Part shown: in pieces, positions 17,356-26,894 of the stretch
How positions within the stretch are numbered: the stretch's first letter is position 1
Layout: each line of letters starts with the position of its first letter
DNA from: a phage
Reading direction: 5' to 3' (one strand)
Sequence record: PZ534511.1
Length of the DNA: 64,000 bases
Made by a program: the position numbers and the translations under genes
Notes under the pieces: generated by a model
What the model was told of the DNA's origin: nothing
The model's database searches: none
What the model saw: the letters and a program-made list of their open reading frames with translations, nothing else

Positions 17356-18198
17356 CATCTGTTCAGGTAGGTCGTTAAGCTACCCCGCACCATTACGTGC
17401 ATAGCCATACAGTTTCCTGTATGGATCGGACTACCTCACTGCCTTGGTAACAAGGCACCTCCCATTTCGACCGCACTTGCTGGCCTACTCTACTCGCTTC
17501 TTCACACCAACCTGTGTTGGAGCTATGCTTTCGATAGTCTCTGAACGTTACTACCAGGTGTAGTTTTTAGAGATATGTTTCCACTGTCTTCTTTGCTTTA
17601 TAGCCCTGACGGTCTCATAAGGATATCCAAGATCCCTAATCTCGCATTGTCGTAGACCACTCTGCAACAGTTCGCAAATCTCTATTACCTCATCTTCTGT
17701 CAGCACAGCGTTGGCATTATACTCACCAACTGGCCTTACTCTGAGGTCATTATCATAGGCGTGCTTGATATTTCCACCAGGGGTGGTCCATTCCAGGTTC
17801 CAGTATGCATTGTTGTACTTATTCCCATCCTTATGGTTCACCCATGTGAGCCTTTCAGGATCCGGGTTTGATACAAAGCATTCAGCAACCAGGTGGTGGA
17901 CACCTTTTGTGCACTGCTTCCCCTCGATTAGCATGGTTACGCAAAGGTAACCTCTACCATTATCAAAACAAAACATTGTTGTATGATCACGTTTCGATAA
18001 AGGTATTGTTCCATCATCAAACACGGTATACCCGTGATAATCAGCTGTTCTAGCCATTTTAACTACACCCCTTTAGTCTTCGCTGCGGATTAGCATATTG
18101 AGCTTTTACCATACTCAGGTGTAAAAGTCAACTTAGCTTTCCCGTCAATTAAAGAGGTTATTCGACATAGATCACTCTATGAAGCCACAATGTTATTT
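17356..18198 (-). mobile_element. group I self-splicing intron interrupting the DNA polymerase gene, with HNH homing endonuclease ORF in the P6 region
   Basis: Minus-strand RNA carries conserved elements P (AAUUGACGGGAAAG, 18137-18150), Q (AAUCCGCAGC, 18082-18091), R (GUUCAGAGACUA, 17535-17546), S (UAGUCC, 17428-17433), and a P9-like hairpin with GAAA loop (17406-17424); 5' exon ends in U, with GUGG available as guide sequence; intron ends in G. Confidence 0.75.
17551..18057 (-). CDS. HNH homing endonuclease (intron-encoded)
   Basis: Motif WVNHKDGNKYNNAYWNLEW (HNH core); C-terminal helix-turn-helix-like region; lies between intron elements Q and R. Confidence 0.8.
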   Translation of the reverse strand: MARTADYHGYTVFDDGTIPLSKRDHTTMFCFDNGRGYLCVTMLIEGKQCTKGVHHLVAECFVSNPDPERLTWVNHKDGNKYNNAYWNLEWTTPGGNIKHAYDNDLRVRPVGEYNANAVLTEDEVIEICELLQSGLRQCEIRDLGYPYETVRAIKQRRQWKHISKNYTW

Positions 18199-20622
18199 AT
18201 GGTAATAGATAATACGACGGACACCTTCATCGTACCACCCACGCTTCACCATTTGGTGGTGCATGAGTATCCCAACTAAGTCACACAGCGATGCACCACC
18301 ATTCTGTTGGTATGCATTAAGTAAAGAGTGTTTAGATCGGGTCCAGATAGCATGACCATCAAAAGAGTAGATAAACTTCTTACCCGTTGCTTCCCAGAAT
18401 TTCTCCAGATCCTCTTTACGCCCCTTAAGACCAGGGTTGGCATCCCAAAGTGCATCGATTACCCTTTGTCCCAACTCTGGAGAGATGTCCAGCATATCTG
18501 CAACTTTATCTTTTTGTGCCCCGTACATAACCCCATACGTGATAGGTTTACCGTCGTTACGAGACACCTCTCTGCCTGCTACTTTTGTATATGCCTCAGC
18601 ATTGTTTTGGTGTGCGTCCCCGTTACTTACAACATCATAATACAAGCCGTTGTCGAACTCAAAGGCACCCCAAGCCCCGATAAGCTGCTCTAAGTTGGAC
18701 CCGTCAATACCGATCTGAAAGTATCCAGGAGGAACACCCCACAGACTACGCATCTCTTTACCCATAACCACTTTAGGAGATGGTTTAGGCATGTTTGCAC
18801 AAATACTGTGTTTCTGTCGTGAAGTGTTTGTTAACCCAGAACTTTTAGCAGGAAGCTTATGGTCAATCTTCAAACGTGGGTGATTAAGAAGACCAGTATC
18901 AACCTTATCCTCCTTGATTGGATCAAGGACCGATCTGCGGTTTCGCAATGATAACCACAAGACGATATCTTTAGCCATCTCTCCGTTCAATTTTTCAAGA
19001 TTCGGGCATAGGTGTCCAAACGTATCTTTCAGTTGCGGAGAAGTAATAAGTGCCCTAGCTTTTCTACGTATTTTCCCGAATACTTCCTTTTTAATCCTTT
19101 CGGAGTTAGGAAAGCTTCGGAACTTGTGCACGGTTGTCTGGAACTTAGCATCAGTTTTGTTCCAGAAGTTGATAATCAGGTCACAATACTCTGACTCTAA
19201 AAGCTCGTCCATATATGCATATACTCGTGCATCAACATCTGCATCAGGTAGAGCTTTCTTCTTGCTGTCTTTAGTTACATCCTTAGTTCTCCACATTGTC
19301 GGAAGCCAACCAGCACTGATCAGGTATCGCTTAATGTCGTCCTGGTTGCTGATTTTCATAGGTATCTTGCAGTCCGGCATTCGCTTCTGCTGTAGATCAC
19401 TTATTGCCTGATCCATTAGCTCTTTAGGTAAAGGTTGTGGTGTGGAGGTGCCCTTAATATAGCCTCTCAAGAAATCAGCCATCTTATCGGGGTCTTTGCA
19501 GCCCATCTCTTCACACCATTTTATCCCTATCTTACTGACATCTCCTGTAGAGGTAAATGCTCGCTTAGGTGGGGCTTTGAACTCTAAAGCGCTCATGTCT
19601 ACAGGGTAGCCAAGCTTATCTTTTAACCATTTCCAGCCATTATTGGAAATTGTCCCATCTTGGTTGAACGGCTTTTCAGGGAATTTAGGCCGCTGAGATA
19701 TTGATAACTCTTTTAAAGGAAGTTGAGGTTCAACACGATCAGCGATCTCTTTCATCCACGCATCACAGCGGTCACGTAAAGCAATAGCCCCGTCTATGTC
19801 GAAATACACACCCTGACGGGCCTGCAGCTCCATCAGGAAGTGCTGCAGCATGCCTCGGCGTAATGCGTTCTTCCAGGTGATCTTCTTGAACCCTTTCGGC
19901 TTCTCTTTGGCAGGATCGTACATAAAGTTCTGCATGTCAGATTTGCCGTAGAATACACCTTTTGATTCCGCTACCAGCTCTTTCCAGAGCAGCTCCTGGA
20001 TGATAACGTCCTCGAATACACGATCCACATACTTCCACAACGGAAGATCGCGCCAGTCATCAATTTGAACTTTCTGGTTACCAAGGGCGTAGCCCCATGC
20101 CATAAGGCCGTGAGGACCAACAGGCTGCATTTTCTTAGTAACCGGGTTGAATACAGAGTCCGGACAACCTTTTGGTAAAGGGCGATCAGGCCACAAAATT
20201 CGACTCATCGCCAACGTATCAAACAGGTTAACCTGGTGGTCGTTGATAGTCCCCATGCATTTAGGATCACGGAACATATCAAAATGAATACCGGATAATC
20301 TTTCCATCAGCATAAAGTCATAACTGTAGCAGTTATGGCAGTTCAAAGCTGTTGGTGACCAGTCGGAATTGCCTGTAAGCCAACCTTCCAACTCCGAAAA
20401 ATCTGCTATGCGAACTTCAAAATCTTTATAAAGAGTTTTCTTTGCCAGAATGAAGTTCTTGGCCTTTTCTATATCCTCCTCGGAGTAGTGTGTGCGGTCA
20501 TTTAGAGGAAGGAACAGCATAAAACGGTTCTTATTCAGCTCTTTAAACAGACCGCAGTGATAATAAAGATCTGGGTCTTCCAAAAGCCCAGAGGCCTCCA
20601 GATCGAAGCACCAATTACTCAT
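18199..20622 (-). CDS. DNA polymerase (family A, T7 gp5-like), exon 1 with 3'-5' exonuclease and polymerase motifs A/B
   Basis: N-terminal FDLEASGL (Exo I, DxE); motif B RNDGKPITYGVMYGAQ; ORF stops 2 codons after ...YYH, before motif C, which is supplied by exon 2. Confidence 0.8.
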
Positions 20623-21353
20623 ACTGTCCCCTCCTGTTTCTTCTCAGCATTCTTTCTTGCAGCTATTGCATCGTCCCTATTCTTGAAATACCCAAGGCAT
20701 TTCCTTTTACCATCTACATAAATTCTGGCTACCCATCTTTCATGGGTTTTATCCCAATTCACCCCTGAGCAACCGCTGGTATTATTATACTGCACGGCTC
20801 TTCCACTCTTGTGCGAAAAACCATTATCTTCGAAGAACTTTCTTGCCCACTCTGCCTCTTCAAAAGTTCTGTACTGGCCTAGCCAGACCCTTTCCCCTAC
20901 AGAGTCTGTGCCTTGAGCTATCCATGCATCTCTTTCTTCAGAATAGTGCACCCCGACCCTGCCAGATTTGTTGTTGCTACGAGGTATCTTGCAACTTTTC
21001 TTTTTGTTATCTGTGGGCTCGAGTAGTTGCAAATTTTGAATACTGTTATCAGCCACACCACCTGTTTCCCTTATCTCCTTGATGTGGTCAACCTCATACC
21101 CTTCCGGTACAGGGCCGTTAAACATTTCCCAGATTATGACGTGGGCACCTTTAGTGCAATGCTTTCCTAGACTAACTACAGGCCTGCCATCAGCATCTTG
21201 CCCCTTGTCAGCTCTGGAGCCTGCTGAAGTTTTAACATATCCTACACCGCTACCTGCCAGAATGTCTATCTTCCAAAAAAGATTTTGACCGTCATACTCC
21301 AGTATCTCTGACCACAGGTGGTTGGCTACACAGTGGTCTCTGAACTCGTTCAT
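20619..21353 (-). CDS. HNH endonuclease with C-terminal AP2 DNA-binding domain (free-standing homing endonuclease)
   Basis: HNH core GYEVDHIKEI..NSIQNLQLL; C-terminal AP2-like segment VGVHYSEERDAWIAQ..WLGQYRTFEEAEWARKF; 4 nt overlap with the polymerase start. Confidence 0.75.
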   Translation of the reverse strand: MNEFRDHCVANHLWSEILEYDGQNLFWKIDILAGSGVGYVKTSAGSRADKGQDADGRPVVSLGKHCTKGAHVIIWEMFNGPVPEGYEVDHIKEIRETGGVADNSIQNLQLLEPTDNKKKSCKIPRSNNKSGRVGVHYSEERDAWIAQGTDSVGERVWLGQYRTFEEAEWARKFFEDNGFSHKSGRAVQYNNTSGCSGVNWDKTHERWVARIYVDGKRKCLGYFKNRDDAIAARKNAEKKQEGTV

Positions 21354-21411: not shown

Positions 21412-23490
21412 TTAAAAAGGTGTTTCATCATCTTCAAAACCGGGGACCGGATCAGAAGATGGATCATCGTACTGGAGGTCTTCCTGCGTGTCAACAGGCT
21501 TAATAGTAGGAGTTACAACCTTATCAGCTACAACCTTGCCCATAGGTGTTTCTACAACTGCATGCTCTTGGTCCTCAAACATGGCCTGAGGTCTCCAAAC
21601 AACCTCCCCACCTTCTCCGTCTGTAAACATCTGCATTTCTTTGTCCCAGTACCAATTACTGGCATCATGGAACTTACCTGTATGTGGGTCCATAACCAAA
21701 GTATCCGCAATACCCAATGTTTTTGCTGGACGGTTTTTAAGACCTACTAAACGGACACGACCACGAGAACGATCTACCATTTCTTCAGCCTCAACACCTA
21801 TGACTACCCAACTCAACTGTTCAAGCCCAGCCGATCCTCGCAAATTCTCTTTTCGCACAGGATACCAGAAAGGTAACGGGTTACCATCCTTGTCCTTAGG
21901 AGGCACAATCTCTGTACGTTTGAGGTGAGCGATCACTAGGATAAACACGTTAAACTGCTTACAAAACGCAGCCAGTTGGGTCATAGCCATGTCCAGCTCT
22001 TTTCGCTCATCCTTAACATTAAGCCCTGAAATTACCATGGACAGGTGATCCAGCACAATATAACGGCAATGGTACAGGCAAACCATTTGCTTAAGCTTGG
22101 TAATCAACTCGTCCACCGGAATAGATCCGAAATGTTTGAACACTTTGATTTTTCCAGCTTTTGCCCATGATTGGTGAATCTCTGCGTGTTCTTGATCAGT
22201 TAAAAACTGGCTAGGATCTTCAACAAACTCTTTAACATCAAACCCTAACTGGTTTGCATACAAGGAGTTAATTGCTTCCTCTGGGTCCTCCTCAAGATGA
22301 ATCATGCATAGACGATCATCCTCTTCGTAATCATCAGCCTTTGGACATGTCGGGTCCATTAGGTATCTTGCAATACAGTGTTCCAGTTTTTTAGCTACAG
22401 TTGTTTTACCGCCTCCTGATGGACCTGTAAGCATTACAAGTGTCCCTTTGTGCAAGCCTTTCAGCATTTTTTGCAGTTTTGGGAACTCTGCGCTGATATC
22501 TACCCCGTTGGAAGTCTTTTTCCGCAAAGATTCGATAGAGAAGTCTTCTAAATCCGACACAGCATCCGGCACATACTTAACAGGATGCCGGAACATGTTT
22601 ACAATATCTTCCAGCTTTTTAGCCTTCAGCATGTCACGGATATCTTTTACACCATCAGGGTCGTTTACCTCGCCAGGATATTCCACGTGGTAAACGTTAT
22701 CAGCCATCAAAAATGCTGCGATATTATGTGTGGCTTCAACACCTTTGATAACGTGTTTTTGCTTCTCTATCTCGTTAGCTGCATCGTTGTCCATTGCAAG
22801 GACCACTGTTCCGTAGCTACGGATAAATTTCTCATTGTTTGCAAAAGTATCTACTGCGTTTGCACATCCACAGTTAATTCCAACAAAAGGTAGGCAGGGT
22901 TTTCCTGCCAGATCACCACCGTTGATAACTGCGTCGATCCCGTCCTGGACCTCTTTAGCCCACTGCTTCACTTTTGCCGGGGCTTTAGCGTTGGTGAGAA
23001 TCCCTTTTACTTGTATCTGATATGCAGCCTGCCATGCTGCAATAACATCACCTTCTCCCTCACAAACGTTAATCTGCTTACGGTTGTTGGAAGATGCACA
23101 CAGCTTTTGACCAAACATCTGGGAGTTAGCCTTCACTATGCCTACTACAGACCAGTGCCCTTTCTGCTCTTTCGGCTTAGTCCAGTCACGCTTTTTGAAA
23201 CCGGACAGATTTCCGTAGCGGTCGTAATATGGGAAATATGTTGCAGTGACTGTCACACCATCTTCTTGGGACAATGCTGATCGCACACCAAAATATTGTG
23301 CAGCCATCAGACCGATATTTTGTTGTGGGACAGGGACAATTTTAGTATTTTCTAAAACAGTCTCTACAGTTTCAACCTCTTTTTCATCACGATAGTCTCG
23401 TTTCATACTACCCCCACTTTTGTATCTTGTTGCAACCGGGTTTGGCTCACCGAAACGGTTGTATGCAGATGCCATAAATTTACTTCCCAT
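21412..23490 (-). CDS. bifunctional DNA primase-helicase (T7 gp4-like: TOPRIM plus DnaB-family helicase)
   Basis: TOPRIM motifs CEGEGDVIA and MDNDAANE; Walker A GPSGGGKTT; Walker B IVLDHL; acidic C-terminal tail EDDETPF. Confidence 0.8.
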   Translation of the reverse strand: MGSKFMASAYNRFGEPNPVATRYKSGGSMKRDYRDEKEVETVETVLENTKIVPVPQQNIGLMAAQYFGVRSALSQEDGVTVTATYFPYYDRYGNLSGFKKRDWTKPKEQKGHWSVVGIVKANSQMFGQKLCASSNNRKQINVCEGEGDVIAAWQAAYQIQVKGILTNAKAPAKVKQWAKEVQDGIDAVINGGDLAGKPCLPFVGINCGCANAVDTFANNEKFIRSYGTVVLAMDNDAANEIEKQKHVIKGVEATHNIAAFLMADNVYHVEYPGEVNDPDGVKDIRDMLKAKKLEDIVNMFRHPVKYVPDAVSDLEDFSIESLRKKTSNGVDISAEFPKLQKMLKGLHKGTLVMLTGPSGGGKTTVAKKLEHCIARYLMDPTCPKADDYEEDDRLCMIHLEEDPEEAINSLYANQLGFDVKEFVEDPSQFLTDQEHAEIHQSWAKAGKIKVFKHFGSIPVDELITKLKQMVCLYHCRYIVLDHLSMVISGLNVKDERKELDMAMTQLAAFCKQFNVFILVIAHLKRTEIVPPKDKDGNPLPFWYPVRKENLRGSAGLEQLSWVVIGVEAEEMVDRSRGRVRLVGLKNRPAKTLGIADTLVMDPHTGKFHDASNWYWDKEMQMFTDGEGGEVVWRPQAMFEDQEHAVVETPMGKVVADKVVTPTIKPVDTQEDLQYDDPSSDPVPGFEDDETPF

Positions 23491-24274
23491 TAATTCTGCT
23501 CCTTACTACAGGCTCGTTTGCTAAGAATACGGCTTTTGCCCAGCCACGTGGTGTGAGGCTTCGAATCATCTTCGTTCTTGCACTCTTTCCACCCAGCTTG
23601 GCGTGTTGCATGGAATACCCGCTAACCACGTCAACTATTTGCGGGACAGGTTTTGTGGCTGGGATTATAAATCCATTACCTATCCAGCCGCAAGTTATTT
23701 TTGGATAGGCATCACGTGGAGCTATAAATTCAGGAAACCATGGATTTACATCATCTTCCGGTAAATACCCGCCATAATCCGAAGGGTGAAAACGGTAATC
23801 AGGTTTGCGCCACAGTGTGGACATAACACCTACAGGATTCTCTACATGCCACGGGCAATCGTAAATCTCTCCCAACTCTTCCGCAACCCGAGCATCCTTT
23901 ACAGCATTAATTTGGATCAGTGGGTCCTTAGCCAGCTTTTTCTTAAAGTGTGCAGCTCCTGATACCGCTAAATGCGTGCACGGAGGAAATGCAAGAATAA
24001 AGTCTGGAGCTGGATACATGCAAAAAGTTTCTTGAGGGAACCATGGGTCAATCCAATAATCCACATAGTGAATGTTAGGATGATCGGTTATCACCTCTGC
24101 ATAACTGCCGTGGTCAGCACCTTCTGCATTAAAGCACAGGCACAGGTACCCAGCTTTTGCCCAGTCAATAACTGCACCACCAGACCCGTCAAATAGACTC
24201 CACACAACACCTTTGTGGTAGTGTTCTTTGTAGATGAATTTCAATTTGCTGTCTCCTAATGCAAAAAGCCCCAC
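23480..24274 (-). CDS. C5-cytosine DNA methyltransferase-like protein
   Basis: Motif I SLFDGSGG, motif IV FPPCTHLAVSG (Pro-Cys), motif VI HVENPVG (ENV); small size (264 aa). Confidence 0.55.
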   Translation of the reverse strand: MGLFALGDSKLKFIYKEHYHKGVVWSLFDGSGGAVIDWAKAGYLCLCFNAEGADHGSYAEVITDHPNIHYVDYWIDPWFPQETFCMYPAPDFILAFPPCTHLAVSGAAHFKKKLAKDPLIQINAVKDARVAEELGEIYDCPWHVENPVGVMSTLWRKPDYRFHPSDYGGYLPEDDVNPWFPEFIAPRDAYPKITCGWIGNGFIIPATKPVPQIVDVVSGYSMQHAKLGGKSARTKMIRSLTPRGWAKAVFLANEPVVRSRINGK

Positions 24275-24290
24275 CCTTTCGGGCAGGGCC
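24260..24290 (-). terminator. rho-independent terminator (minus strand)
   Basis: Minus-strand hairpin GCCCTGCCCGAAAGGGTGGGGC followed by TTTTTGC. Confidence 0.5.
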
Positions 24291-24295
24291 TAGTG

Positions 24296-24778
24296 TTAAA
24301 CCCGGATACCTATTGTATACTCGGTGGATACCAATGTCAAATCTAAATTTAAAATTTCTTGCATCTCATAGTATGCGTCCAGGGTGAGATACATTTCCCC
24401 ATCCTTTTCTACATACTTGTCCAAGTGCTTGAGGCATTTCGGATAACTATCGAGTGCAGCTTTCAGACACTCAAATTCTGTGCTGTTGATGAATCCTTCC
24501 ATCTTGGCTACCCGTTCTGGAGTAACGATAGCACTGTAGTGAGATTTAGCTTCCTGGATGCAATGGGTCCAAGCATCAACTTTCTCTTCGAAAAGTCCGA
24601 AGAACTTCTTTTTAGTGAGCTTCAGATTCTTTAAGTGCTTAAGCACTCGGTTGCCGATCACAGCCACATCACGAAACTTAAGGATCACTTTGTCGATATC
24701 CTCGCGGCCTATTTTCACAAAGCAAGCCTCACACATTTCAGGAGCTGCGTAACCTACTTTCCACATAAAATCTGACAT
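24296..24778 (-). CDS. hypothetical protein
   Basis: Track ORF 160 aa; RBS AATAAGGAGATAG. Confidence 0.5.
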   Translation of the reverse strand: MSDFMWKVGYAAPEMCEACFVKIGREDIDKVILKFRDVAVIGNRVLKHLKNLKLTKKKFFGLFEEKVDAWTHCIQEAKSHYSAIVTPERVAKMEGFINSTEFECLKAALDSYPKCLKHLDKYVEKDGEMYLTLDAYYEMQEILNLDLTLVSTEYTIGIRV

Positions 24779-24790
24779 AACACTATCTCC

Positions 24791-25189
24791 TTATTCTTCC
24801 TGAAAAGCTATGATATCATATGAACTTGCAGATGATCCTGGTGAAGAATGACTCCAATCCAGGTCATCAGAGTAGTCAGCGTACTGTGCACCGCTACGTA
24901 GTTTGTATTTTACCCACTTACCTGGTGCAGGGTTTTCACCACCTTCCCATACTTCCCAGCCTTCTGGCAGGCCGTCCTGAGCATAGTCATCCACCTCACT
25001 AATGATCTTAGGGTTTGGCACCAAGATCCCCGCAGGCTCTTCCTTCCGGATAAGTGTCCACACAGCGTAGGTATCTGAGCAGGCGCATGATAGCAAAGTA
25101 TATCCACTATTCAGAACTTCTGCAAGCTCTTTTTCAGCATCTTCCAATTTAGTTAAGTGGTATTGGATAATCTTCACACCTGTAATCAT
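24791..25189 (-). CDS. hypothetical protein
   Basis: Track ORF 132 aa. Confidence 0.5.
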   Translation of the reverse strand: MITGVKIIQYHLTKLEDAEKELAEVLNSGYTLLSCACSDTYAVWTLIRKEEPAGILVPNPKIISEVDDYAQDGLPEGWEVWEGGENPAPGKWVKYKLRSGAQYADYSDDLDWSHSSPGSSASSYDIIAFQEE

Positions 25190-25533
25190 CAGAAACCTCC
25201 CACTTCTTCAGCAAATGCAGCTGCTGTCGTCGCTGCATCCAGATAGGACTCTAGTTCACGGGCTGCACGTTTGTAAATTGAGTGTCGCAAATCGTTTGGC
25301 AGTTGGTGGAAGTCCACCTCTTCACCGTTGTGGTAAACATGCACATCGGTAATTTGTCTAAATCCGTAATAGTCAACATCAGAATCACGGCACTCCGGGT
25401 CTGGCAACTGGACAACTGCCTGAGCTTCTACAGTAAACATATCGTCAAGTTCGAAATCGATTTCAAAAGTGTATGGTTTATAACGTTTCATCATTTGATT
25501 GTACTCTTTATTGATCAGACATATCTTTCGCAA
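25189..25533 (-). CDS. hypothetical protein
   Basis: Track ORF 114 aa. Confidence 0.45.
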   Translation of the reverse strand: MRKICLINKEYNQMMKRYKPYTFEIDFELDDMFTVEAQAVVQLPDPECRDSDVDYYGFRQITDVHVYHNGEEVDFHQLPNDLRHSIYKRAARELESYLDAATTAAAFAEEVGGF

Positions 25534-26833
25534 TTAAGGCCGGGGTAAGTTTGTAATAACGGAAGCCACCACCACCTTGCCAGTTTACAGACTTAGAAAT
25601 ACCACCTTGATCTTCGCCATCGATCACTTTTTCCAAGCGCGGAATAATATGGGTATGACAATGATCACCCAGTTCGATCAAGATCCAACGTCTTTTCATT
25701 TTGTGAGCTACAGCAGCAGTAGTTCCCGAACCACCGAATGAATCCAATACCAAATCGCCTTCTCGCGTACACATCTCGAAAATCCGCTTCAAAAGCGCTT
25801 CTGGTTTTTTACCATTTTTGAAACTAACGCCACCTTCATTTGCTATTCCATTCCAACTAATATCTGTCCAAACATCAGTTATTAGTTCCGCAGGCTGCAT
25901 CTCACCGTCAATTTCCAAAAGCCTGTTGGAGTAAAAGACCATTTGCCTACCATTTGCGATATAAAATCCTTCAACATCCTCATTTGGATGTACATAAACC
26001 TTATCCCTGTCTTTCTTTGACTTCTCGATAGTTTCTTTTCTCTTTATTTTAGCACCACCACCAATTGCAACAGATTGAAATACACGTTCTGCATTATCAA
26101 TTGCGAATTGTGCTAATTCATCATCGAATGTGTCAGGCAGTTTTTTCTTGGCTTCTTTTGCATCTTTATAGCCATTGGCCTTTGCAAACGCATCGGCAAT
26201 ACCACACCACGTCCAATTTTTATAATGGTCATCCGGGTTTAATAGGTATTTGTTATATCCTGTATCATACCCTTTAGGTATATAGATTTTGTTAAGCGGT
26301 TTCTGGTTGCGATCTTTTGCATATACAAGCAAAAAGTTTGCTGTGGAGAAAACTGTGGCTCCTGTTGCCTTAAATCCTGAAGGGGAATTTGTGGTCATCG
26401 AGATGGTATTTAACTGATTTGCACGACCAAAAATCTCGTCCATCAAAACTTTTAAATACGCCATTTCGCAACCATCTAAGTGAACGAATATTACCCCATC
26501 ATCACTCAGAAGATTACGAATTATTTCTAACCTATCCCTCATTAAGCCCAGCCAAATGGAATGCTCCAGGCTATCATCGTAGTGCTCAAAAGCCCTCCCG
26601 GTATTGAATGGTGGGTCTATGTAAACACACTTCACTTTGCATGCATACTCTTGCTCTAGCGCCTTCAATGCTAATAAGTTATCTCCAAAAATCAGTTTAT
26701 TATCAAAAATATCGTTTTCGGTCACCTTCTGGCTGTGGTAAGATTTGCTAGAATCTTCTAACAAAATGTGCGGCTCTAACTTTTTGCGCTCGTTTTTACC
26801 TATCCAGGTAAGTTCTAATTTGGTTTTACTCAT
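25508..26833 (-). CDS. DNA N6-adenine/N4-cytosine methyltransferase (beta-class amino-methyltransferase)
   Basis: Catalytic motif IV VYIDPPFNTG followed C-terminally by the AdoMet motif LVLDSFGGSGTT (beta-class order). Confidence 0.7.
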   Translation of the reverse strand: MSKTKLELTWIGKNERKKLEPHILLEDSSKSYHSQKVTENDIFDNKLIFGDNLLALKALEQEYACKVKCVYIDPPFNTGRAFEHYDDSLEHSIWLGLMRDRLEIIRNLLSDDGVIFVHLDGCEMAYLKVLMDEIFGRANQLNTISMTTNSPSGFKATGATVFSTANFLLVYAKDRNQKPLNKIYIPKGYDTGYNKYLLNPDDHYKNWTWCGIADAFAKANGYKDAKEAKKKLPDTFDDELAQFAIDNAERVFQSVAIGGGAKIKRKETIEKSKKDRDKVYVHPNEDVEGFYIANGRQMVFYSNRLLEIDGEMQPAELITDVWTDISWNGIANEGGVSFKNGKKPEALLKRIFEMCTREGDLVLDSFGGSGTTAAVAHKMKRRWILIELGDHCHTHIIPRLEKVIDGEDQGGISKSVNWQGGGGFRYYKLTPALIAKDMSDQ

Positions 26834-26894
26834 CGTTTGGTGCTCTCCTTAGTTTTTGTGGGGAGGAGTGCCTCCCCTTTATACTCACACCTTA

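Follow-up and report, generated by a model that had tools for sequence, protein, structure and literature searches.

The closest described relatives of the larger gene treated here are the methylation (Mod) subunits of Type III restriction-modification (RM) systems. The Mod proteins of EcoP15I (PDB 4zcf), Helicobacter pylori (6k0w) and Mbo45V (7dsu) are the relevant examples; proteins of this kind are 567-644 amino acids (aa) long, and that of EcoP15I carries a C-terminal domain (CTD) which contacts the restriction subunit, Res. In EcoP15I Mod the N-terminal domain (NTD) comprises residues 14-60, the methyltransferase (MTase) domain residues 62-262 and 390-516, the target-recognition domain residues 263-384 and the CTD residues 539-644; dimerisation of the Mods involves the NTD together with the MTase domain, Res is contacted extensively by the CTD of ModA, and Mod2 is active as a methylase on its own (PMC4490356). 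For the smaller gene the appropriate comparison is with cytosine-C5 MTases such as M.HhaI, M.HaeIII and the catalytic domains of DNMT3A and DNMT3B, which belong to PF00145 and have at least 300 aa, and with CmoX (PDB 8yf3, 372 aa), which also matches PF00145. CmoX, from the Synechococcus phage S-B43, is the documented precedent for the transfer of a group larger than methyl: a carboxymethyl group is taken from carboxy-S-adenosylmethionine (carboxy-SAM) made by the neighbouring CmoA, and the enzyme is defined by an SPPC motif and by Arg350 in place of Asn304 of M.HhaI (PMC12783734). The two genes analysed here lie within 64,000 nucleotides (nt) of phage DNA (record PZ534511.1), below called the window. 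One of them encodes a 441-aa copy of an Escherichia coli Mod from which the Res-contacting domain is missing, and the other a compact protein of the C5-MTase kind. In the reading which we consider probable, both are orphan MTases that set site-specific and narrow anti-restriction marks.

The 4.3-kb stretch around both genes matched the genomes of many Vequintavirus phages (rV5-like E. coli myoviruses) at 97-98% nucleotide identity. Records matching the 4.3-kb query numbered 118, with at least 80% query coverage in 86, and the whole window aligned in reverse orientation with positions 26,925-91,723 of phage WalterGehring (Bas51). The Bas51 annotation calls bas51_0074 a 'Dcm-like C5 cytosine methyltransferase' and bas51_0070 a 'putative N6 adenine methyltransferase', the counterpart of the latter being labelled 'type III restriction-modification system methylation subunit' in other records. 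Both genes are known orphan MTases, annotated in more than 100 deposited rV5-like genomes of a phage genus that has been sampled well, and are ordinary in this sense. A first-pass annotation of the window had placed two MTase open reading frames (ORFs) of different chemistry at 23480-26833; both were found there, on the minus strand, and the division into a C5-cytosine-like protein and an amino-MTase was upheld, the latter being a beta-class (N6/N4) enzyme related to Type III Mod. The features on which the argument depends are as follows.

25508..26833, minus strand: 441-aa beta-class amino-MTase, Type III Mod-like, without the C-terminal (Res-contacting) domain; ortholog of bas51_0070

25499..26846, minus strand: counterpart of the 5'-terminal 1.35 kb of a chromosomal E. 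coli mod gene; blastn, 93.3% over 1,363 columns against L014:9987-11349

23480..24244, minus strand: compact C5-cytosine-MTase-like gene, 254 aa from TTG 24244; ortholog of bas51_0074

The 441-aa protein matched Pfam PF01555 (E = 8e-42, residues 67-393) and phrog_67 (4.2e-61). The DPPF motif, by which the first-pass annotation had recognised an amino-MTase, occupies residues 73-76 and F-G-G-S-G-T-T residues 366-372, so that motif IV precedes motif I in the order typical of the beta class; DPPF and FGGSG (366-370) were invariant in 30 homologues. The solved structures closest by sequence were those of H. pylori Mod, EcoP15I Mod and Mbo45V, all of them Type III Mods. The PADLOC model MTase_III (PDLC03636) matched the protein at 1.9e-202, over profile positions 2-443 of 575 only. 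In an AlphaFold model built from 30 homologues (pLDDT, the predicted local distance difference test, 81.2) the chain is predicted to end just after the last beta-strand (423-431), followed by a disordered tail only.

The closest non-phage relative of this protein was found on the E. coli chromosome (P0393, WP_024226319, 567 aa). The two proteins share 418 of 438 aa (95%) over residues 1-438, and P0393 runs about 126 residues further. The partial coverage of the PADLOC profile is explained by this, the 441-aa protein being a shortened copy of P0393. At the nucleotide level the homologous segment starts 14 nt before the E. coli start codon, or 13 nt before the phage ATG at 26833; at the other end an 11-nt deletion relative to E. 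coli brings the phage frame into a TAA, and the homology ceases 9 nt past the phage stop. Residues 176-330, which form the recognition domain, differ from the host protein by only 3 substitutions, hence the phage and host Mods likely recognise the same target sequence. The ratio of nonsynonymous to synonymous substitution rates (dN/dS) was 0.088 in the comparison with the E. coli gene and 0.075 in that with Bas51, so that the gene cannot be regarded as decaying. Copies of the 441-aa gene with at least 90% identity were present in 87 phage records, all of them Vequintavirus, and the next-best match fell below 60%. A metagenomic phage contig containing NrdD, PhoH, ClpP and Dam genes carries between PhoH and ClpP a truncated Mod of 444 aa with 84% identity (L020, 6001-7335), and other versions of about 440 aa with 60-70% identity occur in non-phage contexts (e.g. 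L018).

In E. coli, P0393 belongs to an island integrated at selC, in which the genes encode in order a MAD1-type helix-turn-helix (HTH) protein, a DrmD-like SNF2 helicase, AbiD, an AIPR/AbiU-like protein, the methylase P0393 and ResIII. The 910-aa ResIII protein, encoded directly downstream of P0393, matched the PADLOC model REase_III at 8.8e-191. Whereas the host methylase is thus paired with a Type III-type restriction subunit and accompanied by the DrmD-like helicase, AbiD and AIPR, the phage copy stands alone: no res gene adjoins it, its neighbours being small ORFs and a Dda/PIF1-like helicase, and tblastn detected no res-like sequence of the E. coli island elsewhere in the window. The trio of SNF2 protein, Mod-like methylase and ResIII was found also in Pseudomonas aeruginosa (L022) and in the firmicute Aeribacillus (L023), and full-length homologues of the methylase (570-600 aa, 58-75% identity) occur in several phyla. 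The recurrence across phyla of both the trio and the full-length homologues indicates that the long, Res-paired Mod is ancestral and that the phage form is a derived capture. The cargo between the SNF2 and methylase genes is variable and consists of AbiD with AIPR, of a TrlF-family ATPase with AIPR, or of nothing.

The identification of the E. coli island as a MADS system was considered and rejected. MADS is an eight-gene operon in which MAD6-8 are mandatory and which includes a Type I-like methylase with specificity subunit, a kinase and a bipartite target (bioRxiv 10.1101/2023.03.30.534895). Of the MADS models only that of the MAD1-type HTH protein matched (82 bits against a cut-off of 80), and the other proteins of the island matched the DrmD, AbiD, AbiU/AIPR, MTase_III and REase_III models. 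The name 'MAD1' is the one given by RefSeq to the HTH protein upstream in this island.

The mechanically defined C5-like ORF extends over 23480-24274 and gives 264 aa from GTG 24274; the residue numbers of the C5-like protein used below refer to this ORF. The GTG sits within a GC-rich hairpin. Since TTG 24244 is preceded by a strong Shine-Dalgarno sequence (AGGAGA) and is also the start used in the deposited genomes, the protein is taken to have 254 aa. FDGSGG and PPC, both named in the first-pass annotation, were found at residues 28-33 and 97-99, respectively, but the third motif given there, ENV, is absent and motif VI reads ENP (145-147, within V-E-N-P-V).

The protein matched phrog_757 (6.9e-87) and belongs to a large family, with 3,537 database homologues (1,009 representatives after clustering at 50%). 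By tblastn the family was present in 1,465 of 50,697 phage records, i.e. in about 3% of phage genomes, mostly those of Escherichia, Klebsiella, Salmonella and Shigella phages and many of them of about 45-50 kb. In lambdoid prophages the gene belongs to the nin region, where a Dam-type MTase lies two genes upstream of it. Almost all members have 210-260 aa. The short length that had drawn attention in the first-pass annotation is therefore real but is a trait of the whole family, and it separates the family from the C5-MTases of PF00145 named above. The conserved columns include the S-adenosylmethionine (SAM) loop, A-F-P-P-C-T-D-L-A-V-S-G, E-N-P-V, W-R-K-P-D, Y-G-G, P-R-D-A-Y-x-K-x-T and the further stretch K-L-G-G-K-S-x-R-T-K-x-I-R-S-L-T-P-R-G. 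Pro98-Cys99 did not vary among 27 sequences and was retained in at least 90% of 67, and Phe96 was nearly invariant. The dN/dS against Bas51 was 0.029, and both the C5-like and the 441-aa gene are under strong purifying selection. Taken with the phrog matches and the homologues of the C5-like protein, the low dN/dS values indicate that both genes are genuine and not chance ORFs. For this short family neither a curated profile nor a biochemical characterisation was found.

The predicted fold of the C5-like protein matches that of C5-MTases. The protein thus resembles these enzymes in predicted fold and catalytic motifs, yet it fails the sequence model PF00145. Alignment of its profile with a CmoX/HhaI profile (hhalign) gave 85% probability and E = 6e-6 over motifs I-IV; profile searches of PDB sequences placed DNMT3B at E of about 0.16 and M.HaeIII at 0.37-0.71, none of these being significant, and no match was found in Pfam (E <= 0.01), NCBIfam or PADLOC. 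Compared with C5-MTases, the stretch between strands 6 and 7 is longer by about 30 residues, and only about 32 residues lie between strand 7 and the C-terminal helices, where the recognition domain is normally situated. The conserved YGG...PRDAYxKxT stands at the place equivalent to motif VIII, and the C-terminal helix-loop-helix I237-RSLTPR-243 aligns only weakly with motif X (E = 0.3).

The MTase genes of this type of phage are bas51_0070, bas51_0074, bas51_0176 (177 aa) and bas51_0200 (272 aa). The last two are adenine MTase genes and lie outside the window, at Bas51 positions 108091-108624 and 124069-124887, respectively; bas51_0200 contains an NPPF motif and was matched by no sequence in Pfam or PDB. 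A retron study found that GATC is methylated in Bas51 by an 'N6 adenine methyltransferase' which triggers two retrons and is toxic to cells when expressed alone (PMC12548924). The 441-aa protein was considered as this trigger and rejected, the published substitutions D69G, D79G and T83P fitting bas51_0176 only; the agreement of residues D69, D79 and T83 identifies bas51_0176 as the published GATC MTase and retron trigger. Like the two genes described here, bas51_0176 is not accompanied by a nuclease, but it belongs to a different family and its activity is proven. The literature searched for methylomes or restriction digests of rV5-like phages yielded the retron study (PMC12548924) only. Its nanopore calls of N6-methyladenine (6mA) are listed below together with the numbers of sites in the Bas51 genome as counted here.

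GATC: 1,405 calls in the wild type and 35 in the T83P mutant (bas51_0176); 703 sites

GTAC: 509 calls in the wild type and 511 in the T83P mutant; 258 sites

other: 576 calls in the wild type and 349 in the T83P mutant

The calls amount to about twice the number of genomic sites, and GATC and GTAC are thus methylated to about 100% on both strands in Bas51. It follows from the GATC and GTAC data that MTases of this type of phage act on virion DNA. The GTAC calls do not depend on the GATC enzyme. E. coli K-12 is not known to have a GTAC methylase, and for this reason the GTAC mark is assigned to another phage enzyme. We lean towards bas51_0200 rather than the 441-aa protein as its source, since Type III Mods do not typically methylate both strands of a palindromic tetramer. 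In size the 'other' class would roughly agree with what is expected of an asymmetric pentamer, which should occur about 275 times in 140 kb on two strands. The observed/expected ratios in the window and in the Bas51 genome were 0.59 for GTAC, 0.55-0.57 for CTAG, about 0.65-0.86 for CCWGG and 0.98-0.99 for GATC; the low values of the first three are suggestive at most and do not point to a target.

These data are probably best explained by two orphan MTases, a host Mod copy lacking the Res-contacting domain and a compact C5 MTase, whose marks would be site-specific and would counter restriction only narrowly. The likeliest role of both is protection against particular cognate systems. The 441-aa protein is a beta-class enzyme of the N6-adenine type derived from the Mod of the Type III-like module in the selC island. 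Its end corresponds approximately to EcoP15I residue 520 and, together with the predicted model, this position indicates that the catalytic and recognition parts are kept and the Res-docking domain is not. The phage copy accordingly retains the N-terminal region, the full MTase domain and a nearly unchanged target-recognition domain, and stops in the linker before the CTD. Like the Mod2 dimer alone, it could methylate the sites of the host system in replicating phage DNA, so that the progeny would be protected in advance against the Type III-like system regardless of the host in which they were produced. It would not assemble with Res and might thus mark these sites without recruiting a nuclease. 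The C5-like protein combines a SAM loop, a catalytic Pro-Cys and a Glu-Asn-Pro with a very small recognition region, and most likely makes 5-methylcytosine at a short motif. With the two further adenine MTases the phage would possess a set of site-specific marks, each defeating particular nucleases and none conferring general immunity. For both proteins we infer the catalytic activity, the target sequences and the anti-restriction benefit; family membership, fold, the origin and truncation point of the Mod copy and the selection on the genes are shown by the data above.

Several observations weigh against this explanation. The E. coli mod module is rare, occurring in 29 of 5,426 complete E. 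coli genomes (80-95% matches), i.e. in about 0.5%. The correspondence of the end of the 441-aa protein with EcoP15I residue 520 derives from a weak collinear alignment and from the predicted fold. In the BASEL study the Vequintavirinae were 'exceptionally susceptible' to all RM systems tested and showed no effective protection in the laboratory (PMC8594841); any benefit would consequently be limited to RM systems outside that panel. For the C5-like protein, PF00145 matched one of 67 family members (E = 0.0067), significant alignment is confined to the N-terminal half, with none reliable past motif VI by the sequence-profile routes, and neither a recognisable QxRxR motif VIII nor canonical motifs IX and X were found. 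The published modification data on Bas51 consist of 6mA calls only and are uninformative on cytosine, and the literature searches found no published cytosine-modification data for rV5-like phages.

It is tempting to speculate that the truncated Mod acts mainly as a decoy, which pairs with the host Mod or occupies its sites and so poisons the Type III complex, with or without methylation. The architecture of EcoP15I would permit this, given that the parts through which its Mods dimerise are kept in the phage protein and the CTD which contacts Res is lost, and the 95% identity to the host subunit is consistent with such pairing. The proposal is nevertheless pure inference; the catalytic motifs, which a mere decoy would not need, are under purifying selection, and the N-terminal region of the 441-aa subfamily is shorter than that of EcoP15I, which bears on the geometry of the dimer. 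We regard this possibility as unlikely, although such a dominant-negative Mod is both more likely and less radical than a C5-like enzyme transferring something other than methyl.

Distinctly unlikely in our view is that the MTases serve the phage's own biology, such as the timing of transcription, replication or packaging, or the manipulation of host DNA, and not the evasion of restriction. The genes are situated in the replication module, between the primase/helicase and the Dda/PIF1-like helicase, the prophage members of the C5-like family occupy the nin region, and the toxicity of the phage GATC MTase would also agree with a function of this kind. However, no regulatory phenotype has been reported, and the near-identity of the Mod copy to a restriction subunit, its recognition domain included, is most simply understood as mimicry of the mark of that system.

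We also hold it to be very unlikely that the 441-aa gene is an inactive, truncated pseudogene, a decaying fragment of the captured host gene. Truncation by an 11-nt deletion and frameshift, homology that ends at the stop codon and the loss of about 126 C-terminal residues are what such decay could produce. Against this stand the dN/dS values of 0.075-0.088, the intact DPPF and FxGxG motifs and an MTase fold predicted with confidence to be complete through its last strand. The same open length is moreover kept in 87 phage genomes although their proteins differ by up to about 7%, and a second phage lineage has its 84%-identical 444-aa version at another locus.

Little credence can be given to the proposal of the first-pass annotation that the two MTases together provide broad protection against host restriction. 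It has in its favour two enzymes of different chemistry within 3.4 kb, four MTase genes in this genome type and the full methylation of GATC and GTAC in Bas51 virions. The exceptional RM susceptibility of the Vequintavirinae and the match of the Mod copy to a single rare host system speak against the proposal; in addition, sequence-specific MTases shield their own motifs only.

Finally, it is highly improbable that the C5-like protein adds a larger group to cytosine C5 in the manner of CmoX, e.g. carboxymethyl from carboxy-SAM, for which the host cmoA could in principle supply the cofactor: the motif reads FPPC instead of SPPC; at the position of Arg350, whose correspondence to HhaI Asn304 was confirmed in an alignment using the fetched S-B43 locus, the family has an invariant Ser239 (preceded by Arg238), the best alignment being non-significant (E = 0.3); tblastn with SpCmoA and SpCmoY gave no hit at E <= 1, either in the window or across the complete genome of Bas51; neither CmoA nor CmoY adjoins family members in prophages, whereas both lie beside CmoX; and DNMT3B and DNMT3A score as well as CmoX or better. 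Pro-Pro-Cys occurs also in ordinary C5-MTases, such as M.HaeIII and DNMT1, and this too counts against a CmoX-like enzyme. The modified-base transferase suggested by the first-pass annotation thus found no support in this comparison. Scarcely more credible is the general form of the idea, that the family is a minimal cytosine-C5 transferase which uses another donor (e.g. host carboxy-SAM) or has little sequence specificity; such a transferase, if real, would introduce a cytosine modification of which no example has so far been described among enterobacterial phages.

The explanation by two narrow, site-specific orphan MTases changes what can be said of these genes. It would tie the adenine enzyme to one concrete host system and turn a 'putative methylase' into a directly testable anti-restriction hypothesis, and it would offer a clean natural example of a phage that keeps the methylating part of a defence enzyme and drops the part that recruits the nuclease. 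Beyond the existing annotations, the Mod copy has been identified, the shortness of the C5-like protein has been recognised as a feature of a large uncharacterised family and the expectation of broad protection has been corrected. These broad-host-range phages are candidates for use in therapy and biocontrol, and knowledge of the targets of all four MTases would help to foresee by which restriction systems they are limited.

The genes of the replication module are all on the minus strand and comprise the primase/helicase, the C5-like gene, three small ORFs, the 441-aa MTase, one small ORF, the Dda/PIF1-like helicase, rIIB and rIIA. The three ORFs between the two MTase genes, and two regulatory-looking elements upstream of the C5-like gene, are the following.

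25189..25491, minus strand: ORF of 100 aa from ATG 25491; phrog_4240, function unassigned

24791..25189, minus strand: ORF of 132 aa; phrog_11995, function unassigned

24296..24778, minus strand: ORF of 160 aa; phrog_12900, function unassigned

24312..24340, minus strand: sigma-70-like promoter match (TTGACA, 17 nt, TACAAT; 11 of 12 positions) shortly before the hairpin; a lead only

24266..24291, minus strand: GC-rich hairpin with T-run, terminator-like; 11-pair stem with 7 GC pairs from a pattern scan, a consensus match only

The 100-aa ORF, which follows closely on the 441-aa gene, gave besides phrog_4240 a weak match to phrog_1573, 'DNA methyltransferase' (4e-5); no similarity was found between it and the C-terminal domain of the host Mod which the 441-aa protein lacks. 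The hairpin separates the 160-aa ORF from the start codon of the C5-like protein. Reading from 24340 to 24266, the promoter match is followed by the terminator-like stem and then by the ribosome binding site and TTG of the C5-like gene, which is an odd arrangement. This layout could provide separate or attenuated expression of the C5-like gene; promoter-like sites in the region numbered 9 against a shuffled expectation of 7.5, i.e. there was no excess.

An HNH-AP2 homing endonuclease gene (20619-21353, minus strand) is located between the DNA polymerase and primase/helicase genes, and in the Bas51 annotation the polymerase coding sequence is a join that skips another homing endonuclease gene, equivalent to window positions 17551-18057. 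Among the related database entries, many unannotated 'Campylobacter phage' records with Campylobacter jejuni as host (MG065647-MG065682) share about 97% identity with the rV5-like phages of E. coli, and their host label appears doubtful.

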